A stretch of DNA of 30,896 nt from a virus. The notes below the pieces were generated by a model that saw only the letters and a program-made list of their open reading frames with translations, was not told the DNA's origin and did not search any database. Position numbers and translations under genes: made by a program. The stretch spans positions 90,296-121,191 of IMG/VR virus record IMGVR_UViG_3300001847_000838. One strand, written 5' to 3'. Positions 9,280-26,252 of the stretch are shown here, piece after piece. How positions within the stretch are numbered: position 1 is the first letter of the stretch; each line of letters starts with the position of its first letter.

Positions 9280-9575
9280 AAGTTTTAAAATCTGCTTGGG
9301 AAGCAAACAAAATCAAAGTAATCTTAGTTGCTATCCCAGTTATTTTGTTAATTTTAGCCGCAACCTTATTAAATGGTTATAGAGCTTATTTGTTAGAAAC
9401 AGCTAAAAAGCTATTAGCAAAAGCACAAGAAAAAAATACAGAGATTCTTAAACAAGAAAATGAAGCTAAAATGCAAGCTGAACAAGCTATAGCCAATACT
9501 AATAAAGCAGAAGAGGCTATTGAAGAGATTAAAAAAGATGATGATGCATATTGGTACAAAAAGGAAAACAAATGA
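9273..9575 (+). CDS. Inner-membrane-anchored coiled-coil protein (i-spanin-like)
   Basis: N-terminal TM plus coiled coil, in a lysis-like context. Confidence 0.55.
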   Translation: MLEVLKSAWEANKIKVILVAIPVILLILAATLLNGYRAYLLETAKKLLAKAQEKNTEILKQENEAKMQAEQAIANTNKAEEAIEEIKKDDDAYWYKKENK

Positions 9576-9877
9576 TTTTAAAGATCTTACAATTTTTTTT
9601 GTTAGGATTAATAGCTACAATATCGGTTATGTTATTAAAACATCAATATATTATTCATTATCCTGTAGGCTCAATAGGAAAATGTATTGTATTTTACAGT
9701 AAAGTTTCTGAAGAAAGGCTAATAAAAGGCGTTATAGAAGAATATAGCATTCCTAAAGGTAATGCTAAAATTTTAATATCTGAACCTCAGATTTTATCCG
9801 ATGATATTGGTATGATATTTCAAAATGAAGAAATAAGAAATAAAGGATATATATTACTGGAGTGCGAAGATGAATAA
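9572..9877 (+). CDS. Membrane-anchored hypothetical protein
   Basis: Likely start MILKILQFF at 9572 (AAGGA SD, overlapping the upstream stop); N-terminal TM. Confidence 0.6.
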   Translation: MILKILQFFLLGLIATISVMLLKHQYIIHYPVGSIGKCIVFYSKVSEERLIKGVIEEYSIPKGNAKILISEPQILSDDIGMIFQNEEIRNKGYILLECEDE

Positions 9878-10262
9878 GAAAAAGTTACTATCAATATTTT
9901 TGATGATAGCAACTACTAATCAAGCTAATGCAAGCTGTGATTTTTCTAAAGATATTAAAGAAAATTTAGATGGAACATTTACATATAGTAAAGATTGTAA
10001 TGTTGAAGTAGGCAAGAGGATTAAAGAGCTTGATATACGTCGCCAACAAATAGAAGACTTTAATAAAGCAATAACGTTAAAAGATTTAGCAATCAGCAAA
10101 GCTGATGAGCGTGCTAAACTTTGGATGGATACCTCAACTGAGCTTAATGATAAGTTAATAAAATACGATGCAGCTTCAAAAAAAAATGATACTATATATT
10201 TTATAGGAGGGATAGCTGTTACTATCCTTTCTGTATGGGCAGCTGGACAACTTAGAAAGTAG
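9870..10262 (+). CDS. Exported coiled-coil protein with C-terminal TM anchor (spanin-like candidate)
   Basis: Signal peptide ...ANASC, two Cys, helical middle, C-terminal YFIGGIAVTILSVWAAG. Confidence 0.6.
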   Translation: MNKKKLLSIFLMIATTNQANASCDFSKDIKENLDGTFTYSKDCNVEVGKRIKELDIRRQQIEDFNKAITLKDLAISKADERAKLWMDTSTELNDKLIKYDAASKKNDTIYFIGGIAVTILSVWAAGQLRK

Positions 10263-10271
10263 GAGATATTC

Positions 10272-10649
10272 ATGAAGATGATGATTTTAGTTAATGAAGA
10301 TTTTAAAAAAGCATTGGTAAGTCTTTCAAAGCAGCCTTTGCCTCTTAAAGCTGCTTTTAAAATGAAAAGCATTATCAAAAAAGTAGATGAAGAGCAAGCT
10401 AAATATGATGAATGCCGCAAAGAAGCTCTTGAGCGTCTTGGCGAAAAAGGTGAAGATGGTAAACTAATTGTAGAAAATGGGATTGTTAAAATGTCAGCAG
10501 AAAATTTAGCTAAGTTTGCTAAAGAAGTTCAAGTTTTTCAAGATGAAGAAGTTGATTTTTCAAAGTTAAAACTATCAGAACTTGGAGAAGATGTGTTATT
10601 AACAACACAAGAAATGCTCTTGCTTGATCACATTATAATGGAAGACTAA
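10272..10649 (+). CDS. Conserved phage helical protein (DUF1617-like)
   Basis: AL..L...PLPLKAAFK...K...E...Y...RK.....G...EDGK pattern seen near phage tail genes; AGGAG SD. Confidence 0.6.
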   Translation: MKMMILVNEDFKKALVSLSKQPLPLKAAFKMKSIIKKVDEEQAKYDECRKEALERLGEKGEDGKLIVENGIVKMSAENLAKFAKEVQVFQDEEVDFSKLKLSELGEDVLLTTQEMLLLDHIIMED

Positions 10650-10659: not shown

Positions 10660-11319
10660 TTAAGTACCACACCCCATCATAGTACATGCATTTCTAGATG
10701 TTTCTCTAAAAGCCACAGCATTAGTGGTCCAACGCGCAGAAGTGGCATTAGTCCAGTTCATGGTTTGAGCACCTGCGGCAGCAGGAAGTGTATATTCAGA
10801 ACCATAAGAGTTACCGCTAACCGTTCCAGCAAAAATATTTGTTTTCCCCGCCGTTAGTGTGCCGCCATTATCAAAAACAATAGACACTACAGCACAACCC
10901 CCTACTGTAGGAGAAATGCTTACGGTAGGGTTGGTCGAGCCAGCTCCCGCATTAACAGCTTGCGCTGCTACATCTAATATAGAAACTAAGCCTGGAGCTG
11001 CTTTATAGGAAGAAGCGACTAATGTTATGTTTAATCCACCAGTATTTGGAACCACAATATTTGCAGCAGCTCCAGTTGGTGGGTTTAGTAAATACCACAA
11101 TTCCGTTTGTACTACACCACCGCCAGATATTTGAGTTGTTCCTGCTTGCGTCATCGCAATGCCTGAAAAAGTTGGTGATCCACCACCTCTGGCTGTCGTT
11201 GTAATTATTCCTAACCCCAACACTAAAACTGTAGCTCCTGCTCCCAAAGTATAAGACTGGCTTATGCTTGTTGCAGTTTGTCCGGTAAGCTGTACTGATG
11301 TATCAAAAGTGTGTGCCAT
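10660..11319 (-). CDS. Putative virion appendage tip protein (two-lobed beta domain, C-terminal MMGCG)
   Basis: G/T/A/S-rich beta-type sequence; last gene of the fibre cluster. Confidence 0.65.
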   Translation of the reverse strand: MAHTFDTSVQLTGQTATSISQSYTLGAGATVLVLGLGIITTTARGGGSPTFSGIAMTQAGTTQISGGGVVQTELWYLLNPPTGAAANIVVPNTGGLNITLVASSYKAAPGLVSILDVAAQAVNAGAGSTNPTVSISPTVGGCAVVSIVFDNGGTLTAGKTNIFAGTVSGNSYGSEYTLPAAAGAQTMNWTNATSARWTTNAVAFRETSRNACTMMGCGT

Positions 11320-11320
11320 A

Positions 11321-14300
11321 TTATATGTTTTGAACAGCTATAGCAAAAATGTTGATTGTACCTGTTCCAGTTTGTTGAACCGTCCAGTTGTTGTTAACCG
11401 CTGTTTGCTTCCACGGCACTGGTAGGTTAAGAACAACGCCGCCGTTAGCGGCTAGGTTAAACACAGCGCGAGCAGTACCAGCAGTAGCATCACGAACTGT
11501 AACAACTGTGGATTGGTTGGCCGCATTTGTAATAACTAAAGTTGAAAGGTCATTGAATGTAGCAGCAACCGCAGCGACAACCGTAGTCTCAGCCGTTCCG
11601 GTGATTGCAGTCGTAGTGTTAGTCACAAGGTCGCGAATATGACCTGGAGCCACAATTACGCGACCAAGTTTATCAGTCAATATGTTTGAACGTTGACCAT
11701 CAGTTACTGCAGTTGGTTGAGCAGTTTTTGCAACACCACCAACTTTTAAAGGGTTTCCTGAATCGGCTGAACCTGCAGCTACGTTACCAACAACTTGAGC
11801 ATTTAAGCTAGACGCAGTTGCTTGAGAAGCTGTCATACTCCAAGTTCCGAGCTGAGCAGACATAATTGTTTGCTGAGCAAGAGACGCATCAAAAGCTATG
11901 TTTACAGTACCTGAAGTAAAGGCAGAAGCTCTAATGCGAGCCTGAGTATAACCACCACCTGTAATTAAAAATGTACCATTAGTTGTAGTTGTAAATGTTG
12001 AAGAATAAGGTAATGATGCAGTTACAATGTTAAGAGGTATTTGCTGCCAAGTTGTACCATCACCAAGCAAACCTTCTGCAAGAAGCGTAGCTGTCCAAGT
12101 ACCAGTAACTAAAATTGAAATAGTATAAGCACCTTGAGTATTTACTGCAACAGTACCGTTTAATGCGGTAATTGAACCAGTTTGCACTGTATCTGTTGCT
12201 TGAGCACTGGTCGCTTGCTGAATACCAGATAAATAACCAAGTATACCAGAACCACCAGTTGGTGGATTAATACCAGTACCAGCAGTACCATTTGCAATTG
12301 AATTATCAGTTCTTAAAGCTCCGCTTGTTGTTAAAGATAACGGATTTGATTGACCTGTTGTATAAGTTGGAGCCGCAGCTGTTACCGCTCCTAAGTTTAA
12401 ATTACCTTTTTGGCCAGAGGTTGTAGATCCTTGTGATAAGGACATACTGTTAGTATTAGTAGAAATTGCTGATAAAGTAGATTCTGTTGCGGCTCCAGTT
12501 GGAAGCGATACAGTTCCTGAGATATTTGTAATATTCCAAGCACCTGACTGAGTTGCCGCAACTGTACCAGAAATACCTACTGTAGATCCTGTACTGTCAA
12601 CCTTTAAAGCACCAGAAGAACTAAGTTGTAATCCAGCTTGTTGTCCATCTGTTAATGATGGTGCCGAAGAATTATAAATACCACCAGATAATTGAGATGA
12701 ACTTGCTGCAGTACCGCCAGTAGCAGAACCTTGAATGGCATTTTGATTAGCTGATGTAGCAGCTCCAGTTGGTAGTGGTAATGATGATGCACTTACTGAA
12801 AAAGTGCCAGTACCAGCATTTGCTGTAACAGTTCCAGAAACAGGTTGAGTAGCTGGAAAATTAGAGACAGAAATAGATCCGCTAACTGGTTGAGTAGCTG
12901 GAAAATTACTAACTGAAATAGATCCGCTAACTGGTTGTGTAGTGGCACTGCCATCGACTTTAATAGCAGTCATTCCACTAATGCCTTGAATAGTAATAAC
13001 ATCTGAAGATGCTGTACCAGCACTACCTAAAGCTGGTTGTTTAGCTGAAGTTGCGGCACCTGTTGGTAATGGTAATGAACTAGCTGAAATAGGCAATGGA
13101 TTTCCACTATCATTTTTAACTTCAACTTCTACTGAAGAAGTTATGGCTACGTTTTGAGTAGATGGAAAATTAGAAACAGAAATGGAACCGCTTACAGGTT
13201 GAGTAGCTGGAAAATTAGATACGCTAATGCTACCGCTGACTGGCTGTGTAGTAGCGCTGCCATCGACTTTAATAGCAGTCATTCCACTAATACCCTGAAC
13301 TGTTATGACATCAGATGAAGCAGTTCCAGCTACTCCTAAAGCTGGTTGCTTAGCAGAAGTTGCGGCTCCTGTTGGCAAAGATACAGTACCTGAAACATTG
13401 TTAACATTCCATGTACCAGATTGTGTTGCTGCTACTGTTCCTGTTACAGTAGCGTTTAAATTCGCAGCAGTTGCTTGGGCTACAGTAAAACTACCACTAC
13501 CAGCGTTTGCTGTAACTGTACCGCTAACTGGTTGTGTAGTAGCGCTGCCATCGACTTTAATCCCATTAGCGGTAGTAATTACCTTGCCATTTAAAGAAGA
13601 TAAGGTAGATTCTGTAGCCGCACCTGTTGGTAAAGATACAGTTCCTGAGATATTATTAACATTCCAAGTGCCTGATTGAGTTACAGGAATAGAAGAATTT
13701 GTTACGTTTGTTTGGAACGTTCCCGTGCCAGCATTAGCAGTTACAGTACCGCTGACTGGTTGAGTTGATGCACTACCATCAACTTTAATAGCAGTCATTC
13801 CACTAATACCCTGAACTGTTATAACGTCTGAAGATGCAGTTCCAGCGCTTCCTAAAGCGGGCTGTTTAGCTGAAGTAGCAGCGCCACTTGGCAATGGCAA
13901 AGAAGTTGCAGATATAGGTTGTGTAGTAGCGCTTGCATCCACAAGAAGTGCGCCGTTATTATTGGCTTTAACATCTGTATATGCACTTAATCCGCTACTA
14001 TAACCATGCAAAACAGCATGAGCTACAAGACCATTATCTGAAGTTGTGACTTGCGTACTAATGGATTTTACATCTACGCTAGTGCCACCACTACCAACCA
14101 TTTGGCTTTTTTGATTGCCGTTAGTTTGATTTGATGCAGTAGCAGCGCCGCCAATTGTACCAAGGTTAGCTGTTACTGTGCCAGAAATTGGTTGAGTTAT
14201 TGCATTATCGGCAACTTCATAAAAAATCTGAAGATGATCGCCATTAGCAAAAGAAGATCCAGTTGTGTCATAAGTTAAAGTTAAAACGTTTCCAGCAACA

Positions 14301-14458
14301 GAACCGCCAAGATTTGGGTCATTTGCTTGATAGATCGTAATGTTATTAGTAACATCGGTAATTAATAGAACGTTTTCTAAAACTATAGAAACATAGTCCG
14401 AAAAGGTAACCTGCTTTGTCGATTTATTGAACGTGTAATTTTGTATTAGCGTGCGCAC
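11321..14458 (-). CDS. Long fibre/appendage structural protein (1045 aa)
   Basis: T/S/G/A-rich with repeats (QSGTWNxxNISGTVSLPTGAAT; VSNFPATQPVSG; three copies of a ~48-aa unit); N-terminal YTF module shared with the 1361-aa protein. Confidence 0.8.
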   Translation of the reverse strand: MRTLIQNYTFNKSTKQVTFSDYVSIVLENVLLITDVTNNITIYQANDPNLGGSVAGNVLTLTYDTTGSSFANGDHLQIFYEVADNAITQPISGTVTANLGTIGGAATASNQTNGNQKSQMVGSGGTSVDVKSISTQVTTSDNGLVAHAVLHGYSSGLSAYTDVKANNNGALLVDASATTQPISATSLPLPSGAATSAKQPALGSAGTASSDVITVQGISGMTAIKVDGSASTQPVSGTVTANAGTGTFQTNVTNSSIPVTQSGTWNVNNISGTVSLPTGAATESTLSSLNGKVITTANGIKVDGSATTQPVSGTVTANAGSGSFTVAQATAANLNATVTGTVAATQSGTWNVNNVSGTVSLPTGAATSAKQPALGVAGTASSDVITVQGISGMTAIKVDGSATTQPVSGSISVSNFPATQPVSGSISVSNFPSTQNVAITSSVEVEVKNDSGNPLPISASSLPLPTGAATSAKQPALGSAGTASSDVITIQGISGMTAIKVDGSATTQPVSGSISVSNFPATQPVSGSISVSNFPATQPVSGTVTANAGTGTFSVSASSLPLPTGAATSANQNAIQGSATGGTAASSSQLSGGIYNSSAPSLTDGQQAGLQLSSSGALKVDSTGSTVGISGTVAATQSGAWNITNISGTVSLPTGAATESTLSAISTNTNSMSLSQGSTTSGQKGNLNLGAVTAAAPTYTTGQSNPLSLTTSGALRTDNSIANGTAGTGINPPTGGSGILGYLSGIQQATSAQATDTVQTGSITALNGTVAVNTQGAYTISILVTGTWTATLLAEGLLGDGTTWQQIPLNIVTASLPYSSTFTTTTNGTFLITGGGYTQARIRASAFTSGTVNIAFDASLAQQTIMSAQLGTWSMTASQATASSLNAQVVGNVAAGSADSGNPLKVGGVAKTAQPTAVTDGQRSNILTDKLGRVIVAPGHIRDLVTNTTTAITGTAETTVVAAVAATFNDLSTLVITNAANQSTVVTVRDATAGTARAVFNLAANGGVVLNLPVPWKQTAVNNNWTVQQTGTGTINIFAIAVQNI
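13095..13165. repeat. 71-bp exact repeat shared between two fibre genes (copy 1)
   Basis: Identical to 17390-17460; encodes PSTQNVAITSSVEVEVKNDSGNP. Confidence 0.9.
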
Positions 14459-14470
14459 GTTAATTCTCCT

Positions 14471-16666
14471 TTACAGGACTATAGCAAAGTAATAAGCTGC
14501 CTTATTTATGGCTGCTTGCTGAGCTGTTGATACGGGCTTATTTATATCAGAAGTATTGTCTACGTTTCCAAGACCCACATCAGATTTAGTTATATTTATA
14601 TCAGACGTTAATGCATATCCATTTATTTGTCTGGTAGTAGGTACATAGCTTGATAAGGTTGAATTTCTAACAAAAGCACCAGTTCCAATGCCTGTGTATT
14701 CTGCGTTAGTTAAATGATAATATTGATTAGAAGTTCCACCCTGTAACCCAGCAATTTCATTATGAGAAAGTACCAGCGGAGTATGAAAATGACTATAATT
14801 TTGTGTTCCAGAATGCAAAATATGCAATGTTACGTTGCTTGTTTCGGTTGTTGTTCCGTAAACTTTTATCACTAATTTATCTGTGGCATTACAGCTAAAT
14901 TCAGGCTGTACAGTTGTGGCTGCTACTAGCTGAACAGAAGTCCAATTTATATAGAGGCTTTCAGCTGAAAAAAGAAAAGTCTCTACTCCACTTGATGTTC
15001 TAGTATAAACTTCTGTAAATACATGCGCATGCAGTGTGTCTACATACGTAAAGTAGTTAAACTCCCAAATACCAGGATCTACTGTTGTTTTACCAATTGC
15101 AGAGTCAGATATATAAGAATGCAGTAAAACTGTATTATTGTTTACAACAACAGTTTCATCTACTTCAGCTGCGGTATCTGGTGTTTTTGAAATTGTTTCA
15201 TAGCCAGCAATTCCGCCTGAAGTTGTTGATAAAAAATAAGTAACACCTGGTCCAGCATTAACAACAGCGCCGGAAGAATTTACCCAACTTGTGCCATTGT
15301 ATTTAAGTAATTGATCTGTAACTGGACTAGAAATTACTACATCACTTAAATCATTTAAGCTAGCATTAGCTCCTGTGGTAATTAAACCTTTAGAATCATA
15401 TGTAATTTTTGTATAAGTACCACCAACTATAACACTATTTGCTTCAACTTTAGTATCTGCATAAGTTTTTACAGCATGCTGTGTTGGATATAAAGTAGAA
15501 GAATCAGAAGATAAAGATGTATCATTCGATTTATTTGTTAGGTCTTCTTTTCCATCTAATGCCGATTGTGTGCTTGTTGAAATGGGTTTATCAAGATCTG
15601 ATGTGTTATCGACGTTCCCAAGACCTACATCTGTTTTTGTTAAATTAACATCTGAGGTTAAAGCATATCCATTAATTTGTCTACTTGATGGCACAAAACC
15701 GGAAAAGGTATTTGCTAATAAATCTAAAGCTTGTGATACTTTTGTTGGTACAGTAGACCAATCACCCGGTGTAGAGGGCGAGTATTTTATGCCGCTGGCT
15801 TCATCAAAGTATATAAGAGTTGGGCCTGTTACTGTGAGATTAACTAACGCAGAAACATCTGCAGTTACAGTTCCGGTTCCAGTTATGGTGGAGCCTTGGC
15901 CTAATGTTCCTAGCATGAATAAATTACCGTCAACTTGTGCTGACATTGACGCAAACAAACAGCTTTGAAGTAAAGTAAGGCCATTTGAACGAACCCTATT
16001 AGAATAAGGACCACCTACAAATTGGCAACTTTCTAAAATTAAAACGCTATCTGTGTCAAAACCATCCGCAAAAGAATTTATTATTCTTATTGATTGAGGA
16101 CCTGGTGGCAAACTATCTGTTCTTTTTACAGGATATTGACCGTTTGACAGTATAATATTAACAATTCCACCTAATCCTAAATCAAAATTTATCCGCGTTG
16201 AAACATTTACTCCATCCATTAAAAATGTTTCATCTGAAGCTCCAGTAGAAGTATAGTTGATTTGAGCAGAAATGGTTGCTGTATTGCGAATACAAGTTAC
16301 ACTAATACTTTTATTGGCTTGTACAGGCCAATTAATGGTTGAACCAGAATAAGTTCCAGGCGCTAAAAATATTACGTAGTCGCCTGCAGCTGCGCTAGAA
16401 AGAACTGAAACAGCATATTGCAACGTTTGATATGGTCTAGGTTCCGCACCAGTTCCAGTAGAATCGCTTCCGTTGCTTGCATCTACATAAACTTGTAAAG
16501 GGTTTTTATAGTTTACAAGTGATGCTAAGCTGTCTAAAGCTTGCGCAACTTTAGAAGGTACTGTAGGCCAATTTGCAGAAGTAGCTGGAGTGTAATTTAA
16601 GTAGTCAGCATCTGTGGATGGAACTAAATCTAAATTTCCAGTTACTGGGTTAAATTTAATCGGCAT
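14471..16666 (-). CDS. Fibre-like structural protein with a beta-helix-like domain (731 aa)
   Basis: VYVDASNGSD..G....PYQTLQ.A motif preceding beta-helix-like repeats; two VGLGNVDNTSD phage tail repeats; LNDLSDV and W.N fibre motifs. Confidence 0.8.
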   Translation of the reverse strand: MPIKFNPVTGNLDLVPSTDADYLNYTPATSANWPTVPSKVAQALDSLASLVNYKNPLQVYVDASNGSDSTGTGAEPRPYQTLQYAVSVLSSAAAGDYVIFLAPGTYSGSTINWPVQANKSISVTCIRNTATISAQINYTSTGASDETFLMDGVNVSTRINFDLGLGGIVNIILSNGQYPVKRTDSLPPGPQSIRIINSFADGFDTDSVLILESCQFVGGPYSNRVRSNGLTLLQSCLFASMSAQVDGNLFMLGTLGQGSTITGTGTVTADVSALVNLTVTGPTLIYFDEASGIKYSPSTPGDWSTVPTKVSQALDLLANTFSGFVPSSRQINGYALTSDVNLTKTDVGLGNVDNTSDLDKPISTSTQSALDGKEDLTNKSNDTSLSSDSSTLYPTQHAVKTYADTKVEANSVIVGGTYTKITYDSKGLITTGANASLNDLSDVVISSPVTDQLLKYNGTSWVNSSGAVVNAGPGVTYFLSTTSGGIAGYETISKTPDTAAEVDETVVVNNNTVLLHSYISDSAIGKTTVDPGIWEFNYFTYVDTLHAHVFTEVYTRTSSGVETFLFSAESLYINWTSVQLVAATTVQPEFSCNATDKLVIKVYGTTTETSNVTLHILHSGTQNYSHFHTPLVLSHNEIAGLQGGTSNQYYHLTNAEYTGIGTGAFVRNSTLSSYVPTTRQINGYALTSDINITKSDVGLGNVDNTSDINKPVSTAQQAAINKAAYYFAIVL

Positions 16667-19600
16667 TATGTCCTCACCACTGAAGAAATTGAATTTTTAG
16701 AAGCATCAGTGTAATTTACAGTTATTGTAGCAACCGTAGTTAAACCAGTTTTGTAAACATAAACTTCTTGTGTAGTTGTTGGATACGTTGCCGCAATATT
16801 ATCATAGTTATATGGTACTAATGTGTTAGTTTGCAGTACATTTGCCGTACCGTTTACTGATACGGAACCAATTAAATTTGAACCAGCAGGAATGGAAGGC
16901 AATGAGGTTACTGCTACGTTTGGCGTACCAGAAATTGTAGCAGTTACGTTGCCGGAATCGACTACTGTGTGCAAATTTGTTCCAGTAGCTTGAACTACTG
17001 TAAAGTTGCCAGAACCAGCATTTGCTGTAATCGTGCCACTAACTGGTTGTGTGGTAGCGCTGCCGTCTACTTTTACCGCAGTACTATTGCCACCTTGTAT
17101 GGCTAATGGTGATGTTAATTTAGAATCTATGGATGCTAAAGACGCATTTGCAGTAGATTGATTAGCTGATGTGGCAGCTCCAGTTGGTAAAGATACAGTT
17201 CCTGAGATATTATTAATATTCCAAGTTCCAGATTGCGAGGCTCCTACCGTGCCAGTTACAGTAGCGTTTAAATTTGCAGCTGTTGCTTGAACTACTGTAA
17301 AATTACCCGTGCCAGCGTTGGCTGTAACTGTGCCTGAAACTGGTTGAGTAGCTGGAAAGTTAGATACAGAAACAGAGCCTGATACTGGTAATGGATTTCC
17401 ACTATCATTTTTAACTTCAACTTCTACTGAAGAAGTTATGGCTACGTTTTGAGTAGATGGGAAATTGCTAACTGAAACAGAACCAATGGCATTTGCACCA
17501 GCAGGCAAGCTAGGTAAGGAAGTAACCCCAACTGTGCCAATTGCATTAGAGCCAGCATTTAAGCCTACGTTCCAAGTACCTGATTGAGCAGCATTTACTG
17601 TACCCGTAACAGTTTGAGTTGCAGGAAAATTTGATACAGAGACCGAACCAATGGCATTTGCACCAGCAGGTAATGATGGTAAAGAAGTTACCGCTACGTT
17701 TGGCGTTCCAGAAATTGTAGCAGTTACGTTGTTAGCTACAGTTTGGTGTGAAGCTACAAGAGTTACATAGCTAATTGTTGCGCTTACTACACCAGTAACA
17801 ACGCGAGCACGAATATATCTAAACTGAGAACCTGAATAGTTTGTTGAAACAGGAGTAGAGCCGCCTGTTACACCAGTTACTTGAGTCAATCCTTGTACCC
17901 AGTTAATATTGTCGTCAGATCCATCTAATGCAAAAGTTACAGCAGAACCACCTGCACCTTGGTTAACAATCATTGTATAAGCAGCATATCCATCGCAATA
18001 TAAGGCTGCTGAAGCGCTGTTTGTTGTTGCAGGGTTAATAGTTCTATCAATTATGTTACGTTCGTAAATACCATTAGCAGTTGAACGAGTACTAGAAATG
18101 GTTCTTGTAAAACTTGGCGTAGTTCCACCAATTGTTTCAACATATCTAAAATATGAACCGTCTAGTTTTAAAGCAGGAGTTTGATAAAAACCAACTGCTG
18201 TAATACGAGGCATTTGATAAACAGTATTCCAGTTTACGTTATCTGTACTAGATTGAACTGAAAAATCGTATGTTTGACCTGTACCAGAAGTTACGGTTAC
18301 CGCTACGTTTAAGCTTACAGCCACACCTTGAGTAACAGTTTTTGTTGCCGATGTTGTAGTTGCTGTAATTGCAGCAGATGCCTGTTCAGCTACCTGATAT
18401 AATGTATTTTCGTTAACCGCACCAATTGTGTTAGCGCCAGCAGCTAAAGCACCTGTAATTGCTGAAATATTTGATACGTTAACTGAATTACCATAACCAG
18501 TTAATTGTAATGGTTGTCCTAATGTACCAACTACACCTTGAACAGTAAGAACAGTACCGGTTGTGGTAACTTGAATACGCATCCACTTAAACCCATTAGG
18601 CATAACTCTATAGGTTGAAGCAGCTGTCATTGTTAATGCGCCGGCGTTGTTGTTTAATGCAAGATCTTGTACTGGCAAAGATACCCAAGTTGTAAGAGTT
18701 GGGTCATTAGTACCTTGTGCAGTTAAAACTGTTGTAGTAACAGCAGAAATTTGAATATCTACTTCCGAAAAACCACTAACATCAATTGGACCAGATAATG
18801 TATTACCGGCAGTTACTGAATATACCCAAGGTAGTAATACGCGAGTATTTGGTACGTTTGCTGGAGTAACAAAAGCATACGCCGTACCGGATGTGTAAGA
18901 GGTCATATTGGCTCTTACATAAATTTGCTGACTTGTAGCACTTGTAATATTAAGAAGTGCAGGATTTATTAAATACAATCCATTAGCTGTGGTAGTAGAA
19001 GTTTGAGCAGAACTTGCAGGAGAAGCTATTGGATTTGTAGCTAAGCTAAACCAACTAATATTATCTAACGAGTATTGAAACGTAATTGTTCCAACCCATG
19101 CTGTAGTAGCAGCAGGACCATTTGTAATTGTTAAATAATAAGATCCGCCACTGTTTAAAATATATGTGACTGTAGAATTAAGAGAAGCTAAGTTGTTGGC
19201 AGTAGGAGTAGAAATTATTGAACCAGGAGATGCAATAACAGGCAAGTTAGCTTGATCTGTAGCTAAAACAACCGGCAAAGAATTGGCTGATACAGTTTTT
19301 CCTTTAGATGGTAGTTTTGTATCAAGAGAAGCTGTGCTTGTTTGAATAGCAGACAAAGAAGTATTGCCAGTTGTTTGTAAGGCCGAAGTCGAAGCGCCAG
19401 TCGGTAAACTTACTGTACCCGCTATATTGTTTATATTCCAAGTACCAGACTGAGAGACTGGAACAGCAGATTGGTTTGATGCTATAGTTACAGGCAAAGA
19501 GTTGGCCATAGTATTTTGGCCAACTACTCCAGATATGTCACCGAGAGCGGTGGTGAGGGCACCTGACGGCGTGACCTTCACATTTACATAACCTCCTCCA

Positions 19601-20751
19601 CCTCCTGTAGTTCTCCCTGTAATAACAGATCTATTTAGTGCAGCTAATGTATAATCTGTTATAATAGCATTTATATTGTCTAAGTTAGAAGTTGTTCCTG
19701 CTGCCCAACAGGCAGTATAAATTGTAAGCAAAGTAGCATCTGCAGATGTTTTTGACACATCTACTGTCATTGGTAAATTTGGATTAGCAACAGAAGGGTT
19801 TAAAGAGCTGTTAGGCTGTTTGATTGTATGAAAATTTATCCAAGTTCCATCGGGAGAAAAAACATCAAATAAAATTGATCCAGAACCTAACCAAGCAAAT
19901 CTTATTCTAAATAAATTACTAAAAGTTAAATTTATAGCTTCAGGAGTTCCATTTCTTTTAAAATTAGAATTACTGTTTCCATCTAAAAGATCGTTATTAA
20001 AACTAGAAATAGGTATAAAAGTGTCTGATCCAGAAGTTCTTTTAGTTAAACCAAAAGTAGTTCCATTATAACCTATAAAAAAGCCATTGTTTGTATCATA
20101 TATGCCAATTCTTTGATAAGAATTGGCAGAAGTCGGAGTAGTAAAAGCTGCAGTAAAATACGCATAAATTTCATTTGCAGGACGATACTCAACCGTTTGA
20201 ACAGATATACCCTTAGCGGATGATGTAGTAGCTGTGCTTGTTGAGTACAAAGTGTGGCCATTTGTTTGGGTTACCGATCCTCCTCCGCTTATAGTATTTG
20301 TAATCAAATTTGTATCAAGGGTACTTTCAAAATTAACTTCTATTTGATTATACTTACTAGCAAAAATTGTAGATCCAAGAACATCAGTTCCAGCCGCTGT
20401 GGTTATATTGGCGTTTAAAGTTCCAGTAACTGGAATAGCAGTCTGATCGGAGGCAATAACTACCGGAGCAGAGTTAGCCATTAAATTCTGGCCCACAACA
20501 TCATAAATAATAAGCAGCTTATCAGAACCACTCATTGACGATGTGTTGTAAGCTAAAGTCAACACTGTTCCAGATAAGTTGGTTAAGCCATATTGAGACT
20601 GCCCTACGACGTATATTATCTGATTCTTATCTATGTTTATGATAGCGTACAGTTTCTTTACGTTGAAACCCGATATTCCGTAAAGATCTACTGTCCCTAC
20701 TCCAGCGGCTCCAGGGCTAAATGTATATGAGGGGGTTATACTTTGTTTCAT
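16666..20751 (-). CDS. Long fibre/appendage structural protein (1361 aa)
   Basis: Shares repeat modules with the 1045-aa protein; four tandem ~100-aa domains with S.D...W and (Y/W).R motifs. Confidence 0.8.
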   Translation of the reverse strand: MKQSITPSYTFSPGAAGVGTVDLYGISGFNVKKLYAIINIDKNQIIYVVGQSQYGLTNLSGTVLTLAYNTSSMSGSDKLLIIYDVVGQNLMANSAPVVIASDQTAIPVTGTLNANITTAAGTDVLGSTIFASKYNQIEVNFESTLDTNLITNTISGGGSVTQTNGHTLYSTSTATTSSAKGISVQTVEYRPANEIYAYFTAAFTTPTSANSYQRIGIYDTNNGFFIGYNGTTFGLTKRTSGSDTFIPISSFNNDLLDGNSNSNFKRNGTPEAINLTFSNLFRIRFAWLGSGSILFDVFSPDGTWINFHTIKQPNSSLNPSVANPNLPMTVDVSKTSADATLLTIYTACWAAGTTSNLDNINAIITDYTLAALNRSVITGRTTGGGGGYVNVKVTPSGALTTALGDISGVVGQNTMANSLPVTIASNQSAVPVSQSGTWNINNIAGTVSLPTGASTSALQTTGNTSLSAIQTSTASLDTKLPSKGKTVSANSLPVVLATDQANLPVIASPGSIISTPTANNLASLNSTVTYILNSGGSYYLTITNGPAATTAWVGTITFQYSLDNISWFSLATNPIASPASSAQTSTTTANGLYLINPALLNITSATSQQIYVRANMTSYTSGTAYAFVTPANVPNTRVLLPWVYSVTAGNTLSGPIDVSGFSEVDIQISAVTTTVLTAQGTNDPTLTTWVSLPVQDLALNNNAGALTMTAASTYRVMPNGFKWMRIQVTTTGTVLTVQGVVGTLGQPLQLTGYGNSVNVSNISAITGALAAGANTIGAVNENTLYQVAEQASAAITATTTSATKTVTQGVAVSLNVAVTVTSGTGQTYDFSVQSSTDNVNWNTVYQMPRITAVGFYQTPALKLDGSYFRYVETIGGTTPSFTRTISSTRSTANGIYERNIIDRTINPATTNSASAALYCDGYAAYTMIVNQGAGGSAVTFALDGSDDNINWVQGLTQVTGVTGGSTPVSTNYSGSQFRYIRARVVTGVVSATISYVTLVASHQTVANNVTATISGTPNVAVTSLPSLPAGANAIGSVSVSNFPATQTVTGTVNAAQSGTWNVGLNAGSNAIGTVGVTSLPSLPAGANAIGSVSVSNFPSTQNVAITSSVEVEVKNDSGNPLPVSGSVSVSNFPATQPVSGTVTANAGTGNFTVVQATAANLNATVTGTVGASQSGTWNINNISGTVSLPTGAATSANQSTANASLASIDSKLTSPLAIQGGNSTAVKVDGSATTQPVSGTITANAGSGNFTVVQATGTNLHTVVDSGNVTATISGTPNVAVTSLPSIPAGSNLIGSVSVNGTANVLQTNTLVPYNYDNIAATYPTTTQEVYVYKTGLTTVATITVNYTDASKNSISSVVRT
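17390..17460. repeat. 71-bp exact repeat shared between two fibre genes (copy 2)
   Basis: Identical to 13095-13165. Confidence 0.9.
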
Positions 20752-20759
20752 CCGCGTTC

Positions 20760-20969
20760 CTATCCGTAGACTAACGAGTTGATGATTGAATTTACGTTAT
20801 TAGTAGGAGCCCAGTCATTATTGTTAGGCCCAAATTTATGATATTCAGCACTACCGTCTGTCATTACAGCAAGAGACCCTATTGGTGCTTCAATTGGAGA
20901 AGAAATAGGGTTTTCATCTACTTCTAAAATAAGGATTTCATTTACTGTGATCTCACCTAAAATAGCCAT
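20760..20969 (-). CDS. 69-aa protein homologous to the N-terminal module of the 862-aa fibre (putative adaptor)
   Basis: MAILGEITVNEILILEVDENP...APIGSLAVMTDGS..Y.K.G.....W aligns with residues 1-58 of the 862-aa protein. Confidence 0.8.
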   Translation of the reverse strand: MAILGEITVNEILILEVDENPISSPIEAPIGSLAVMTDGSAEYHKFGPNNNDWAPTNNVNSIINSLVYG

Positions 20970-20984
20970 GATAAGCTCCGCAAA

Positions 20985-21185
20985 TTAACCATCAATCTTT
21001 TTAATTATTGCTTTAGATAGTTTTACTTTTGGTGAACTCCACAATGCATTAAGCTCATTTGAGTATTCTGGATGACATGAAATGCATAAAAACTCTCTGG
21101 AGCTGATGTCTTCGCCTTCCTGTATGCAAATGATTTCGTTTATATTTTTGTTTTTTTTACATGCATTGCATCGTTGGCTAGCCAT
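20985..21185 (-). CDS. Small CxxC...CxxC Zn-finger-like protein
   Basis: CNAC...CISC; AGGAG SD. Confidence 0.7.
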   Translation of the reverse strand: MASQRCNACKKNKNINEIICIQEGEDISSREFLCISCHPEYSNELNALWSSPKVKLSKAIIKKIDG

Positions 21186-21213
21186 ACATCAGCTCCTGAG
21201 TTTTAGTTGCTAG

Positions 21214-23802
21214 TTATGGAAGAGTAATAACTGTATAGGTTACTGTCCAATCTACGTTGTTATTAGCTGCAGCGTTTACTCTTATTCGTGCTGAAGTTCC
21301 ACTAACATCTAAAGTTCCATTCCAAGATGCTTGATCTTCAGATGTATAATCAGATTGCAAGTTAAGAATAGTTACAGTTCCACTTACGTTTTTAAAACGA
21401 GCACTACGTATATAAACTGCAGAATCCCCACTTGCTCCAGAAGTACCTCCAGTTCTTCTTCCTACTATCTGAGCTTGTACTAAAATAGCAGAATTAGAAG
21501 CAACTGAAATACTAGCAAGTGTTGTGACGGTTGCATCGGTAGTACTAACTTGCGCTTGAGACATTTCCCAATTAGCTTTAGTTGCACTAGAATCTACATA
21601 TTTCATAGAGCCACGGAAAAAAGAACTTCCGTTAACATCCAAGGATCTAGCTGGAGCGTTAGTTCCAATACCTAAACGATTATTTGAGTCATCCCAAAAG
21701 AGATTGGCATTATCTTGTCCAGGAAGACCATTTGCATCAGCAAAAAACACAGAACCTTGAGTCAAGGCAGAGTGCTCTACGATAGCGCCGGAACTAGAGA
21801 TCATAATGCGGTTGTTATTTAACGCAGCGCTACTGTTAGTACCACCGTTAGCAATTGGAAGAACACCAGACACGTCAGCGGTTAAGCTAACAGCAGCCCA
21901 AGACAAATTACCAGATCCGTCATTGTGCATAACAGAGTTAGCAGCACCTTGCGTCAATGGTAGTATATAGTTATGCGAGGTCGCGCCGTTACCTACATAT
22001 AGACCGATGTTCTTGCTAGCATCTGGGCTATAAAAAGCGGCTTTACCGTCTGGGTTAAGTACCAATCTGTTAAGAGAGCTATTAGAAGAAGACCCAGAAA
22101 CGCCCCCTGCTGGAGATACCTGAAACGCAATGATTCCACCAAGCCCCGTTCCAGTAGATTCACCAGATTTAATAGTTAAGCTACCAGAAGCTAAGTCAGT
22201 GCCAACCATTTGAGCAGTCTTAATGACACCAGTTTGTGCGCTAGATGCTGTACCGCCACCTAAGAATACAATATGGTTAGATGCAGTATTACTGTTTAGC
22301 TGAAGAGTAGTAACGGCAGTAGCAGTTGCGTTGGGAACAGTTCTAAGTAACAAACGTGTTCCATTAGCGCCTACACCATAATTTTCATTGGCAACTCCAT
22401 TTATTTGAGCGCCTTGAATATAACTAGACCCATCATATCCAGCAAAAGTTATAGACCCTAAAGTATCGCCACTTTGAACTGCTGCGCCAGCTCTTTGTTT
22501 TCTAAGAGACAAAAATGGGTTATTTGTGTTTGCTCCAGTGTGTTCAATCCATTGACCTACGTTAGCAGCCGCTGATCCACGAATATGAAGTTTAGCTTGT
22601 AAGGAACTGTTTATACCAATACCAAGCTGTGCGTTGGTAGAATCCCAGAAAAAGTTAGCATTATCTTGTCCAGGAAGACCATTTGCGTTAGCAAAAAATA
22701 CAGATCCCTGAGTAAGAGCTGAATGCTCTACAATAGCTCCACTGCTGGAGATCATAATTCTATTGTTATTTAGAGCGGTGCTAGAGTTAGTACCGCCGTT
22801 AGCGATTGGTAATACGCCGGATACATCAGCGGTTAAGCTGACTGCACTAGAAGACAAATTACCATTTGAATCGCTATGTACAACTCCCGTACTAAGAGCG
22901 CGTACACGAGCATTACCGTTAACATCGAGAGCTACGCTAGGAGCGTTTGTGCTAATACCCAAACGGTCATTGATCGCATCCCAAAACAAGTTGGATTCGG
23001 AATTGATCTTATTAGCATCTTTGTAAAATGCTACTTGACCTGCAACTCCAACGTCTGCATCATCTCGCATAACAAAAGTTCCGCTTGCATCAGCGAACTT
23101 TTGAACACGACCGGCAGAAAGATTTGCTAAACTAAGACTATTACTATAAGCTACATTTGGAGCTAACAGCTCATAACCGTTTCGGTCAGAGCTTACTTTT
23201 AAATAACCAGTAATAAGACTATTTTCTTCAAATTCCAGCCCCGAACCACCAGCCGAAGTGGCGGCTCCACCTTTATTTAAAGTAATAAGTTTGTCTTTAA
23301 TTTGGGTGTTAGTAGAGTTAAGGTATACTAGAGATCCATTAACCGTTAAATCACCATTAACTATAACGTTATTACCAAAAGTTTTATCACCATTTATGGT
23401 TTGAGCGCCTTCAGTCAAAACAAAGCTAGCGCTTGCTCCACTAATTGCTGGGACAGTATATATTTGAGCTGAAGAACGAGAAGCTGCTTCAATTTGAATA
23501 GCAACACTTCCAGATCCTTGAGATACAGCGTCATCAAGAGTTTGACCACTGGCGTTAGTGTTGTAAATAGGTAGTTTTAAATAATCACCTACTGCAATCC
23601 CGCCATCTGCAGCTGTAGAGATTTTATCCCAGGCAGTATCGGAGGATCCCGTTTTAATATATGCTCTACCTACATTAGAGCCATCTTCCCATACCGCTAA
23701 AGACCCCACTTCAGCAGAAGTTCCAGCTCCATCAGCTGGATTAGCATCGACAACAAGATATTTCTTTTCGCCAATAGTTATTAAATTTAATATGTTAGCC
23801 AT
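21214..23802 (-). CDS. Tail-fibre-like structural protein (862 aa)
   Basis: QTINGDKTF, GDLTVNG, GVLPIANGGT, FWD...RLGIGTNAP..LDVNG fibre motifs; 66-aa internal duplication; AAGGAG SD. Confidence 0.85.
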   Translation of the reverse strand: MANILNLITIGEKKYLVVDANPADGAGTSAEVGSLAVWEDGSNVGRAYIKTGSSDTAWDKISTAADGGIAVGDYLKLPIYNTNASGQTLDDAVSQGSGSVAIQIEAASRSSAQIYTVPAISGASASFVLTEGAQTINGDKTFGNNVIVNGDLTVNGSLVYLNSTNTQIKDKLITLNKGGAATSAGGSGLEFEENSLITGYLKVSSDRNGYELLAPNVAYSNSLSLANLSAGRVQKFADASGTFVMRDDADVGVAGQVAFYKDANKINSESNLFWDAINDRLGISTNAPSVALDVNGNARVRALSTGVVHSDSNGNLSSSAVSLTADVSGVLPIANGGTNSSTALNNNRIMISSSGAIVEHSALTQGSVFFANANGLPGQDNANFFWDSTNAQLGIGINSSLQAKLHIRGSAAANVGQWIEHTGANTNNPFLSLRKQRAGAAVQSGDTLGSITFAGYDGSSYIQGAQINGVANENYGVGANGTRLLLRTVPNATATAVTTLQLNSNTASNHIVFLGGGTASSAQTGVIKTAQMVGTDLASGSLTIKSGESTGTGLGGIIAFQVSPAGGVSGSSSNSSLNRLVLNPDGKAAFYSPDASKNIGLYVGNGATSHNYILPLTQGAANSVMHNDGSGNLSWAAVSLTADVSGVLPIANGGTNSSAALNNNRIMISSSGAIVEHSALTQGSVFFADANGLPGQDNANLFWDDSNNRLGIGTNAPARSLDVNGSSFFRGSMKYVDSSATKANWEMSQAQVSTTDATVTTLASISVASNSAILVQAQIVGRRTGGTSGASGDSAVYIRSARFKNVSGTVTILNLQSDYTSEDQASWNGTLDVSGTSARIRVNAAANNNVDWTVTYTVITLP
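21691..22839. repeat. 66-codon internal duplication (21691-21888 and 22642-22839)
   Basis: SLTADVSGVLPIANGGTNSS.ALNNNRIMISSSGAIVEHSALTQGSVFFA.ANGLPGQDNAN.FWD; 63/66 aa identical with many synonymous differences. Confidence 0.9.
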
Positions 23803-23866
23803 TTATTTTTATCTCCTTAAGATAAAAGATTATCTTTATTAAGTAAAAACTTTATATTACAAATAC

Positions 23867-24826
23867 TTATGTGCTTCCTACGAGCAGCTCTATATTAACG
23901 TGTCCTGTCCAATAGATCACGTCAGTTGTACCAGCCTTTACAGTAAGATTTAAGTCTGTTGCAGTAAGGCTGTAACCTACATCAAGATTGTTATCGTTCT
24001 TGATTGTTTGGTCAGATAGCCAAGTTCCTTGAGATTGAACATTACTAAGTTGTCTATAAAATAAGCCAGTTCTTTTAAAAGTACATCTTTTAGTTCCATC
24101 ATCAGATCTTCCAACAACAATGTATTCTACTCTTACAACGCATGGGTTAGGTAAAGTTATAGAGTAAGCTATCTGTGAAGTTAATGAGTCAGTATATAAT
24201 GCAAAGGTTTCTTGACGAAGCCCGGTGCCAGGATAGCCCATGTGGCTTTTTTGATGAAAATGAGCTATAGGAATATCAACATCTGGTCCTAGCCCAAACC
24301 TTCCTTGCTTATCTATTTTAGCAACTCTAACATTGTTGGTGCGAATATTAAGATCTTTAGCATCAACGGTTCCTAAAAACTGCAGGTTATCATCTATTCC
24401 TGCATTTCCGTCTAATGCCCAAAAATTCTTTTCAATCATAGAAACCGCTTCAGTTACTACATACAAGATGCCAACTGTAGCATCTTGTTTCATAACTTGG
24501 GCTACTATACCTCCGTTAATTGTAGTAGATAAGTTTCCATTTGCGTCACTATAAAGATAGCTACCAACTGTCCAAAGTGAAGTGTCTACATCAACCATAA
24601 AACCAAACGCACAAACCATACCGGTTTTTCCATTGGCTATAGTGTCATAAGTTACTCCAAAATTGGGATGCAAAGATGGATTGGCAAGCTCTACTTGAGG
24701 ATAAGCAGTTCCCTGAGAAGTTAGCCTTACAGCCTTCATGGCTAATATTATACTTCCGGTATTGTTCTCCACCACCTCATTTGTTGGGCTGTGAAGGTCT
24801 CTTCCTTTGAGCCTTGAATGAAGCAT
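23867..24826 (-). CDS. Virion structural protein (319 aa); C-terminal domain homologous to that of the 862-aa protein
   Basis: N-terminal capsid-fibre/decoration-like segment (G.V...G....VDTS.W..G..LY); W.L.GN......FLGT.D..DL.IRTNN motif. Confidence 0.7.
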   Translation of the reverse strand: MLHSRLKGRDLHSPTNEVVENNTGSIILAMKAVRLTSQGTAYPQVELANPSLHPNFGVTYDTIANGKTGMVCAFGFMVDVDTSLWTVGSYLYSDANGNLSTTINGGIVAQVMKQDATVGILYVVTEAVSMIEKNFWALDGNAGIDDNLQFLGTVDAKDLNIRTNNVRVAKIDKQGRFGLGPDVDIPIAHFHQKSHMGYPGTGLRQETFALYTDSLTSQIAYSITLPNPCVVRVEYIVVGRSDDGTKRCTFKRTGLFYRQLSNVQSQGTWLSDQTIKNDNNLDVGYSLTATDLNLTVKAGTTDVIYWTGHVNIELLVGST

Positions 24827-25044
24827 TAGATGGTCACCACGTTTCCATTATTATCTATAACTACCCTAGGTCCATCTTCTAAAAAAACTCCATAAGCTGG
24901 ATCCCAGGTATGAAAAATATGTCCAGCAGAATTTCTTTGTGCGGTTACTATTCTGTCTGAATTAAAGTTTCTTACAACATCCAATTGTCCAGTTATAGGA
25001 TTAAGAACCAACTCTTCTTTATCGCGCGGACTATTATTACTCAT
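24826..25044 (-). CDS. 72-aa protein with NPITGQLDVV motif (putative adaptor)
   Basis: Start and stop overlap both neighbours; motif shared with the N-terminus of the 731-aa protein. Confidence 0.75.
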   Translation of the reverse strand: MSNNSPRDKEELVLNPITGQLDVVRNFNSDRIVTAQRNSAGHIFHTWDPAYGVFLEDGPRVVIDNNGNVVTI

Positions 25045-25625
25045 GATGTCCTCTTATATTTTATTGCGGATTTTGCTGCGTCATAAGTTACTTCTATCAC
25101 GCCCACAGGTAATGAGTTTTTAAAGAAGTTATAGGATAAGGGATCTTCTGAAGCATCTCTAATAATTGTTACTTCATCAAAGTCCGCAGGTGCTAAACCT
25201 ACAGCATTAACTATCTCAACAGGTATAGGATTATCTTTGCTATAATGTTCGCCGGTATCGTCAACAGCTATAACTCGCTTTGCAAGTATAGGTTCTTCTT
25301 CATAAGAAGCTCTATTTATGTGCTCTAAAGTTATACCGGGTCTAGGCTGTTTAGGTGCAGAAACCGCTGCATTATCTAATATTTTGTATGCAGATACATT
25401 GATGCGGGCGTCTATATTTTCACCTTTTTTTCCTACATAAAAAGATGTAGAAGATTCAAAACGCTTTATTTCGACTTGTAAAGGAGGTTGGGTGTCAGAC
25501 GTAAGAATGACAATTTGTTTAACAAAGAAACCACGCACATCTTCTACTTGCACGAGGCCGTAAGAAGATCCGTCGACGATGAAAGCACGCGGCTTCACCT
25601 CTATCAGGTGTCTTTCAAACCACAT
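25041..25625 (-). CDS. Virion-associated protein (194 aa); C-terminal module shared with the 1361-aa fibre
   Basis: First gene of the fibre cluster; AAGGA SD. Confidence 0.75.
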   Translation of the reverse strand: MWFERHLIEVKPRAFIVDGSSYGLVQVEDVRGFFVKQIVILTSDTQPPLQVEIKRFESSTSFYVGKKGENIDARINVSAYKILDNAAVSAPKQPRPGITLEHINRASYEEEPILAKRVIAVDDTGEHYSKDNPIPVEIVNAVGLAPADFDEVTIIRDASEDPLSYNFFKNSLPVGVIEVTYDAAKSAIKYKRTS

Positions 25626-25786: not shown

Positions 25787-26233
25787 CTAAGGTAGGCTTA
25801 CTGCGCCAGCCTCTTCTTGATCGCCACTTTCGTCAGAAACTTTAAGTCCAACATAGCTAATACTAATACGGGTAGTAGCTCGTGCGCTTGGAGCTGAATT
25901 GTAGCTTGTAGGAATACATCCAATAGCAGTCATAATAAGTTCGCCACTTTGACGGTCTCTAATAGAGATAGTTACCGAACCAAGATTTAAAATATCTTGA
26001 AGTTTAGGAAATTTAGGCAAAGTGTGAACACCGTTGCCAACTACCCTAAAACCTGCACAGCTTATATTGACTGCTTCATAGCTTGTTGGGGTAATTTCGG
26101 CAGGACCAAAACGACCAAGAATATGAATAGGCTCTACACCTATATTTGCACCATAGCTGCAGTTTTCAAAAACACCAACAACTTGGTTGTCTACGCTGAT
26201 GACTGCCCGGCCACCGGTTAAGACTTTAGACAT
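25787..26233 (-). CDS. Tail tube protein
   Basis: 148 aa directly after the sheath gene; G.EPIHILGR..P.E..PT.Y and I.IRDRQSG......GC motifs typical of myovirus tube proteins. Confidence 0.8.
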   Translation of the reverse strand: MSKVLTGGRAVISVDNQVVGVFENCSYGANIGVEPIHILGRFGPAEITPTSYEAVNISCAGFRVVGNGVHTLPKFPKLQDILNLGSVTISIRDRQSGELIMTAIGCIPTSYNSAPSARATTRISISYVGLKVSDESGDQEEAGAVSLP

Positions 26234-26252
26234 ATTTAACTCCTTTAATCAG

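Follow-up and report, generated by a model that had tools for sequence, protein, structure and literature searches.

How do fibre proteins encoded one after another in a large freshwater phage come together? The DNA analysed here, called the window, is a stretch of 30,896 nucleotides (positions 90,296 to 121,191 of IMG/VR record IMGVR_UViG_3300001847_000838). A small set of reusable plug-and-socket modules, with predicted binding, appears to link its nine fibre proteins end to end, and these pairings come back in many unrelated phages. The ten open reading frames of the original prediction were all found at the positions claimed, on the minus strand, together with all of its repeated terminal modules. 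The overlapping stop and start codons that it had described were also present, over 4 nt (ATGA) between the genes for the 194-aa and 72-aa proteins and over 1 nt (TAATG) between those for the 1361-aa and 731-aa proteins; the 72-aa and 319-aa genes likewise overlap by 1 nt. Contigs of two DNA runs, which may be the source samples, bridge the gene junctions almost unchanged, so an assembly artefact is excluded. The cluster is also covered by contigs from RNA runs; their higher depth near the 862-aa gene was set aside, because contigs cannot rank genes.

The cluster lies behind the tail genes, and carries the following modules:

25787..28403, minus strand: genes for the tail tube (148 aa) and the sheath (716 aa), immediately upstream of the cluster (PHROG 279)
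25221..25625, minus strand: anchor domain N, residues 1-135 of the 194-aa protein, a small beta-barrel
25044..25199, minus strand: socket A, subtype A1, C-end of the 194-aa protein, four beta-strands
24955..25020, minus strand: plug a, long-leader subtype, in the 72-aa adaptor
24829..24954, minus strand: module H, C-half of the 72-aa adaptor
24440..24826, minus strand: module h, leader and cement_2-like domain of the 319-aa protein
23876..24211, minus strand: socket B, subtype B1, C-end of the 319-aa protein, an eight-stranded beta-sandwich (pLDDT 95.5)
23605..23802, minus strand: plug b, subtype b1, N-end of the 862-aa extender
21217..21561, minus strand: socket B, subtype B2, C-end of the 862-aa extender
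20760..20969, minus strand: 69-aa adaptor, consisting only of plug b2 (residues 1-58) and tail c2 (last 10 aa)
20488..20751, minus strand: domain C, c2 lineage, N-end of the 1361-aa fibre
16669..16824, minus strand: socket A, subtype A2, C-end of the 1361-aa fibre
16604..16666, minus strand: plug a, short-leader subtype, N-end of the 731-aa fibre
14474..14509, minus strand: hydrophobic tail c1, C-end of the 731-aa fibre
14204..14458, minus strand: domain C, c1 lineage, N-end of the 1045-aa fibre
11324..11659, minus strand: socket D, C-end of the 1045-aa fibre
10660..11319, minus strand: 219-aa tip protein, with a C-terminal tag (MMGCG) as candidate plug for D

The 731-aa protein matches many tail-fibre PHROGs and the 1361-aa protein PHROG 1645; these family matches, and the position after the sheath and tube genes, are those of fibre proteins in general. 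The sheath matches that of Myxococcus phage Mx1 at 42%. None of the modules is named by any Pfam family, and A, B, b, C and N gave no significant match to PDB sequences.

Adjacency of the modules was scored over a non-redundant set of 1,800 gene junctions, drawn from about 195 fetched loci and leaving the window out; part of this set had been fetched using the modules themselves as queries. Pattern scans used subtype alignments. Socket A was followed by plug a at 15 of 16 junctions, B by b at 21 of 27 (and at three more across one small gene) and tail c directly by C at 25 of 41, and there were no cross-pairings among the three. Within fibre-like junctions only, Fisher's test gave p values of 4e-23, 7e-24 and 2e-17 respectively, which overstate significance as the junctions are phylogenetically non-independent. 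The modules were almost always terminal (A 33/33, B 55/55, C 61/61, b 56/58), and the last B formed the C-end in 150 of 150 database matches. Two loci fetched through B, L145 and L146, contain A followed by a, an out-of-sample pass. Pairs also hold in L145 as an unrelated phage and in cultured phages, where c precedes C in all three checked (Sonali gp25 and 26, Atuin gp180 and 181, B23 gp324 and 327). The original prediction had named adjacency in unrelated phages as its test, and the pattern was recovered for all three pairs, including c and C, which it regarded as the weakest. Two junctions that it had left unpaired carry pairs as well: H is followed by h at 12 of 12 junctions, and D by a gene with a terminal hydrophobic tag at 12 of 34, compared with 10 of 1805 elsewhere.

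Fibre bodies are shuffled between loci while the pairs stay together, as in N-A/a-H/h-B/b-B/b, N-A/a/a-c/C, N-A/a-E/e-B/b, N-c/C and x-A/a-B, where a slash marks a gene junction. Proteins bearing h after H have three different downstream C-ends. Domain N is N-terminal in 78 of 79 cases and in many relatives heads the cluster as the first gene after the tube, and we infer that it serves as an anchor. Its fold matches are middling (Z 9.2, 75 aligned) and indicate a common fold only; a single-protein scan of viral contigs and cultured phages with the 194-aa protein found no match. Module h lies just below the family cut-off of PF09956 (E 7e-5). Domain C belongs to PHROG 5838, a virion structural protein, in 31 of 34 members, and occurs without an upstream c tail in T4-like cyanophage loci. 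One contig, L193, carries a Cytophagales MAG label; this was rejected as host evidence, as the contig resembles a whole phage in the bin.

At the far end of the cluster, D is C-terminal in all 39 homologues. Tip homologues keep their body and change their tail, and D also precedes the tip in L149. The 3,494-aa protein of that locus, searched over its last 3,332 aa for a natural socket-plug fusion, contained none and had only D at its end. With both partners at C-termini, the D/tag joint would be tail-to-tail, contrary to the claim that all joints run head-to-tail.

The two copies of each module were compared against 300 shuffles. Plugs were clearly alike (b/b z 11.8, a/a z 8.2), as were the C domains (z 7.7), followed by B/B (z 4.8) and A/A (z 3.1, weak); both A copies match one HMM at E<=2e-16. 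The claimed similarity of the c tails did not hold pairwise (z<3), but they stand as two subtypes of one tail type, and the c2-lineage C of the window clusters with four other c2-preceded C domains (support 90/97). Short-leader plug a comes after A2 in L019, L138, L145 and the window. Subtypes B1/b1 and B2/b2 co-vary (rho 0.56, p 0.001). Since each pair's two uses fall in different sublineages, assembly is probably mostly in gene order, and the co-variation of reused subtypes, a pattern read from sequence, favours ordered assembly. Because each pair type is used twice, orthogonality hinges on subtype specificity, seen as co-variation only. Subtype co-variation is in part a matter of shared descent.

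Of six pairs, one, B/b (as B1/b1), was modelled as a complex of trimers, as the original prediction had suggested for all terminal modules, and here the outcome was positive. The B3:b3 (3:3) model scored 0.93, against 0.71 for the best of three controls. Of 80 solved complexes, 58 attain the mark, and of 110 mismatched pairs 2 do (counts that are rough for this job); near relatives of a genuine partner pass it as well. Runs shared 100% of contacts, with a partner pLDDT of 95. In the model the N-terminal strand of each b chain runs along the SDxT strand of the B trimer, with residues 4-12 of b at the predicted interface. The best-placed contact joins T74 of B and T9 of b, which are the only two invariant threonines, each within its own alignment.

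The B fold resembles C-terminal domains of tailspikes (Z 8-9); its best match (Z 9.2, 108 aligned) is middling and points to a common fold only. The B family comprises 6,668 representative clusters at E<=0.001 and 2,329 at 1e-10. Three of four distant loci from database matches (L145, L147, L148) have B without a following b, so B also serves as a plain terminal knob. Plug b resembles the Mtd_N/PTL_trimer-type N-terminal trimer domain in its features (0.90), which at an hhalign probability of 20% is a lead only, and genes of Mtd_N type carry on b chains in L028 and L097. Mtd_N (PF18454) caps the fibres of Bordetella phage BPP-1; none of 30 b members matches it at E<=1, and b, which is without a Pfam match, pairs with a 115-aa beta-sandwich and not with a short peptide.

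We favour, at a probability of roughly 0.72, the reading that these genes specify an accessory appendage on the virion of an Mx1-related myovirus, built of separately encoded proteins joined via terminal docking pairs. Each protein would comprise plug, body and socket, and would probably be trimeric. The 194-aa protein would anchor the chain through N, the 72-aa and 69-aa proteins would be pure adaptors switching joint type (a to H, b to c), the 862-aa protein (b...B) an extender and the long Ser/Thr-rich proteins shafts, with the 219-aa protein as a tip held by its own C-terminal tag. At the B/b joint, N-terminal strands of b would lie on the SDxT strands of the B trimer, 3:3 as modelled. Binding of the other pairs, the trimer state, the stoichiometry and a role in adhesion are presumed, and the appendage would be located on the neck, sheath or head rather than the baseplate. 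Adjacency in unrelated phages and the 3:3 model support the modules as cognate docking pairs, at the level of prediction. The docking pairs of the original prediction are thus supported, but its one unbranched 1:1 appendage in strict gene order goes beyond what the analysis shows: fibre genes are reordered and not collinear in L031, L013 offers two a plugs to a single socket, and both halves of one pair sit on the 862-aa protein.

A variant with the same docking pairs, differing from the favoured reading only on stoichiometry and order, is that there is no 1:1 line: the 862-aa b...B protein would self-polymerise like gp81 of phage A-1(L), with the 319-aa protein as initiator, many extenders and the 69-aa protein as terminator, while A/a and c/C, each being reused, would leave room for loops, skips or alternative tips. 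We regard this as possible but rather unlikely. The triad B/b...B/b, found in at least 10 distinct loci, mirrors gp82-gp81x14-gp80 (PMC10966104), and alongside the two plugs per socket of L013 some proteins have two to four tandem B or two b. The extender gene also has its own upstream signal:

23826..23833, minus strand: ATAATCTT motif, lying some 30 nt before the 862-aa gene and followed by a strong RBS

This intergenic motif precedes five minus-strand genes of the genome and is a possible late promoter; a similar AATCTT lies at the extender gene in L002 and L090. Most relatives, however, lack an upstream motif of this kind. The extender always combines a B2 socket with a b1 plug, whereas B2 is more often followed by b2-type plugs, which suggests self-avoidance.

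Small genes after fibre C-ends often encode chaperones. Transient caps are described in PMC10579305. The downstream N-terminal module could accordingly be a folding chaperone or transient cap (Tfa/gp38-like) with no continuous chain, and in L147 and L148 B is followed by small unrelated genes. One gene of the cluster may have such a product:

20985..21185, minus strand: 66-aa Cys-rich (Zn-ribbon-like) gene, between the extender and the next plug; homologous genes stand at that place in L092 and L126

For the plugs themselves this explanation is improbable, as they head fibre bodies of up to 1900 aa besides tiny proteins, and the tiny plug proteins bear a second module from which the following gene can be predicted. 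Fibre genes do recombine within their bodies, which would carry junction blocks along, and gene ends are tied by overlapping stop and start codons, but we give very little credence to the pairs being relics of recombination or duplication, co-inherited as DNA blocks without binding, because they persist across an inserted unrelated small gene and gaps of -11 to +133 nt, the two copies in the window are only 19-42% identical and lie in different lineages, and invariant residues meet at the modelled interface.

Should the predicted binding hold, the layout of long phage appendages could be deduced from the order of their genes, and many unnamed proteins would gain a role. The chances are about even that environmental phages share a library of terminal docking pairs, six or more in number and mutually exclusive, which with its orthogonal subtypes works as a combinatorial assembly code. 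Under such a code, gene order would give subunit order in appendages of up to nine different proteins, here about 4,900 residues per chain, and tiny two-module adaptors would convert joint types. It would also explain how fibres are lengthened or re-tipped by whole-gene exchange, and could supply small, possibly orthogonal trimer connectors for protein engineering. In a literature searched mostly without subscription papers, we found neither these families described nor a docking code, be it a general one or a combinatorial one of six pairs. An isolated c and C gene pair occurs in the cultured Arthrobacter phages Sonali and Atuin, which grow on a laboratory host, so the docking idea is directly testable.

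The T4 long tail fibre, gp34-gp35-gp36-gp37-(gp38), also joins several proteins end to end in gene order, but is baseplate-anchored and every joint is unique, with no reused or shuffled pair types; the modules have no PHROG or Pfam match to T4 proteins. Docking domains of PKS and NRPS are terminal cognate pairs, reused and roughly collinear with gene order; this likeness is an analogy only, ours being a structural fibre and not an enzyme line. The view that such an arrangement had not been described for phage fibres was too strong, given the A-1(L) neck fibre (PMC10966104) and the Klebsiella system (PMC13352976). In Klebsiella podophages, one RBP carries at its N-end a conserved docking peptide that attaches to a branching domain of the RBP from the preceding gene; experiments showed this peptide to be needed for incorporation (Latka et al., PMC6872550, PMC13352976). 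By analogy only, a and b are conserved N-terminal elements tied to the upstream gene. The Klebsiella system has one side-branch joint, two RBPs and an internal T4gp10-like domain, whereas the window's sockets lie at C-ends, in series, and belong to several families. A T4gp10-like domain, which may nevertheless be present, gave no Pfam or PHROG match and was absent from the fold matches of B and the 194-aa protein. A beta-helix depolymerase had no Pfam match in the window proteins; in Mx1, N forms a fusion with a pectin-lyase tailspike.

The neck fibre of the Anabaena myophage A-1(L), gp82-gp81-gp80, consists of separately encoded trimers from one operon, joined head-to-tail where N-terminal elements rest on the C-domain that precedes them (Yu et al. 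2024, PMC10966104). No similarity to gp80-82 was found for A, B, b, C, D or N (HMM E>0.07 for all modules), and at the sequence level B gave hhalign probabilities of 0.2% and 1.1% with gp81 and gp82. The h profile has no match to gp81 and matches gp82C at 17.4 bits, compared with 10.5 for the best among 600 shuffles, and with an hhalign probability of 58%, so the h domain of the 319-aa protein, the only one of nine window proteins with such a domain, is a probable homologue of gp82C. The two systems share the logic of anchor, extender and tip, seen here in the B/b...B/b triad; A-1(L) repeats a small bead in a 14-copy homopolymer with a single type of joint, whereas the appendage proposed here would use six joint types and long shafts.

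A 121-kb phage contig, originating from freshwater or aquatic samples, ends with the window; its sheath protein and the sheath of Myxococcus phage Mx1 share 42% identity. Sheath and tube genes precede the ten genes of the fibre cluster, all on the minus strand, and the fibre-gene junctions are bridged by contigs from two DNA runs. Since a separate baseplate and fibre-like cluster occupies 43–68 kb of the full record (G000), the ten-gene cluster is probably an accessory appendage. The elements concerned are:

10660–25625, minus strand: fibre cluster, encoding in order proteins of 194, 72, 319, 862, 66, 69, 1361, 731, 1045 and 219 aa
21217–21561 and 23876–24211, minus strand: the two copies of module B
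8871–10649, plus strand: small convergent genes adjoining the cluster end, one matching an Rz-like spanin (PHROG 2536)
G000 C1:52592–53044, outside the window: 150-aa protein of the baseplate-fibre cluster with a domain of the cement_2/gp82C-like type, as in h (E = 4e-8)

The plus-strand genes are probably a lysis cassette, with similar ones in relatives. At loci L007 (5660–7099), L008 and L018 a gene of 480–540 aa, homing-endonuclease-like by appearance, is inserted directly after the tube gene. A conserved gene of ~165 aa often closes the fibre clusters of relatives (e.g. L002:16835–17335) and is absent from the end of the window cluster; its product looks like a permuted papain-like amidase.

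The original prediction held that three cognate pairs chain the fibre proteins in gene order: C-terminal sockets A and B with N-terminal plugs a and b, and hydrophobic tail c with N-terminal domain C. The ORFs, motifs and stop/start overlaps that it described were all found in the sequence. Repeats of a, b, B and C were significant against shuffled sequences; the copies of A were weakly alike pairwise and were joined by an HMM, and the two c tails showed no likeness in pairwise comparison. Across fetched loci and database matches the modules were confined to protein termini, and the bodies between them were swapped freely among loci.

Approximately 195 loci were collected via the tube, anchor domain N (the N-end of the 194-aa protein) and modules b, B, C and D (the C-end of the 1045-aa protein), HMMs were built and gene junctions were counted, excluding the window and collapsing at 70% identity (n = 1,800). 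A was followed by a at 15 of 16 junctions, B by b at 21 of 27 and c by C at 25 of 41, with no cross-pairings among the three pairs in the 1,800 junctions. One small gene intervened in one, three and three additional cases respectively, and adjacency persisted when the count was restricted to fibre-like junctions. The p-values are inflated, since related phages are counted and the modules themselves were used to retrieve some of the loci; out-of-sample cases therefore carry more weight. Locus L145, fetched via a distant B protein, sits amid terminase, portal-like and capsid-like genes; there A ends a 317-aa protein, and the next protein begins with a and ends with B. In all three cultured phages found through C, the gene before C bears a c tail. 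L146 is a further out-of-sample locus in which an N-A protein precedes one starting with a. The predicted successions recur across phages, these out-of-sample cases included. No b follows B in L145, L147 or L148, and no c lies upstream of C in T4-like cyanophage loci. In one phage group (L035, L040, L051, L058, L077, L083) a 48–61-aa gene separates the c-tailed gene from the C gene.

B is predicted to fold as an 8-stranded beta-sandwich (pLDDT 95.5) resembling tailspike C-terminal domains (Z 8–9). The 3:3 model of B and b reached a score of 0.93, against 0.71 for the best of three controls; this mark is attained by 58/80 solved complexes and 2/110 mismatched pairs, counts that are only a rough guide for the B/b job. 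Contact agreement between runs was 100%, and partner pLDDT was 95. Residues 4–12 of b lie against residues 67–79 of B (the SDxT strand), and the best contact, T74–T9, joins residues each invariant in its own alignment. The model supports, rather than shows, binding of b by B. Structural matches of B (TM 0.85–0.92) also include predicted folds of proteins from uncultured giant viruses (Marseillevirus, Pithovirus, Clandestinovirus), and some phage proteins carry 2–4 tandem B domains. For N a small barrel is predicted, which matches tailspike and tube accessory domains to a middling degree. In the cultured phage Mx1 it heads a 664-aa pectin-lyase tailspike (WNM70132.1, L001:39624–41618), ~22 kb from the tube gene. 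The barrel matches and the Mx1 tailspike N-end are compatible with N as an anchor.

The two junctions for which the original prediction named no pair have candidate pairs too. The h leader of the 319-aa protein followed H, the C-half of the 72-aa protein, in 12/12 junctions; of the pairs, this is the most open to plain co-inheritance. The adjoining h domain and A-1(L) gp82C are probably homologous, and the 150-aa protein of G000 possibly forms another such joint. In 12/34 cases the gene after D encoded a protein with a short hydrophobic tag at one terminus, versus 10/1,805 elsewhere. As the tag is mostly C-terminal, including in the 219-aa protein, the D joint would be tail-to-tail. Among 219-aa homologues the body is conserved and the tail varies; at L151:7108–8726 the same tip body has a different, repeated GGVWK-type tag, and the fibre before it has a GDVW-type motif at its end. 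At L149:1–10660 a 3,494-aa fibre, composed of 1361- and 1045-like segments, has D at its C-end, and its gene runs into the start of a homologue of the 219-aa tip.

Other loci hold other junctions. Small proteins with a short beta-rich tail (E) precede long fibres whose N-terminal leader (e) is distinct in L019, L023, L026, L028, L029, L104 and L146 (two subgroups, 3/3 each), and L146 reads N-A, a-E, e-B, b. In L028:12536–15226 and L097 the b chain is continued by an IDGG-type C-terminal peptide and then a Mtd_N-like start. In a sister group (L011, L012, L015, L016) N is followed by a 260–310-aa protein and a 60-aa coiled-coil-like protein, with conserved junctions (8/8, 9/9, 7/7); no A, B or C modules were found in that group.

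Each pair is used twice in the window cluster, so order requires subtype specificity. Across phages, B1 (319-aa protein) co-varies with b1 (862-aa) and B2 (862-aa) with b2 (69-aa; rho 0.56), A2 (1361-aa) goes with the short-leader a (731-aa), and the c2 tail (69-aa) tracks one C lineage containing the 1361-aa and excluding the 1045-aa protein (support 90/97). The two copies are therefore old lineages, which rules out local duplication as their origin; the co-variation is itself partly shared descent. The 862-aa extender gene has a ATAATCTT motif upstream. Subtype co-variation favours the predicted ordered chain, though not as a strict rule: L031 places the extender gene after the b2 gene, in L013 one A is followed by two a plugs, and some loci have B without b or C without c.

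The docking-pair pattern is real and widespread, well supported by genomics and with one predicted interface. We propose, with a probability of roughly 0.7, that the cluster proteins form trimers which would be linked by their terminal pairs, mostly in gene order, into an appendage anchored by N. A polymer or branched form would be a variant differing only in stoichiometry; the triad B, b...B, b, seen in at least 10 loci, could polymerise like A-1(L) gp81, and we hold this variant as a tentative possibility. That the downstream module serves only as a chaperone fits poorly and is improbable. Poorer still in likelihood, the pairs as a mere relic fit the data badly.

Comparable systems are known. 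T4 gp34–37 are collinear. In the A-1(L) neck fibre, separately encoded fibre trimers are joined head-to-tail (PMC10966104), so the original view that such an arrangement was undescribed for phage fibres is too strong as regards the joining itself; in Klebsiella phages a peptide has been shown to dock onto a branching domain (PMC13352976). Our literature search returned no publication that describes the module families seen here or a multi-pair code whose pairs are reused. The window system would work like the A-1(L) neck fibre, the Klebsiella docking peptide and T4 gp34–37, and by sequence it belongs with none of them except through the h domain.
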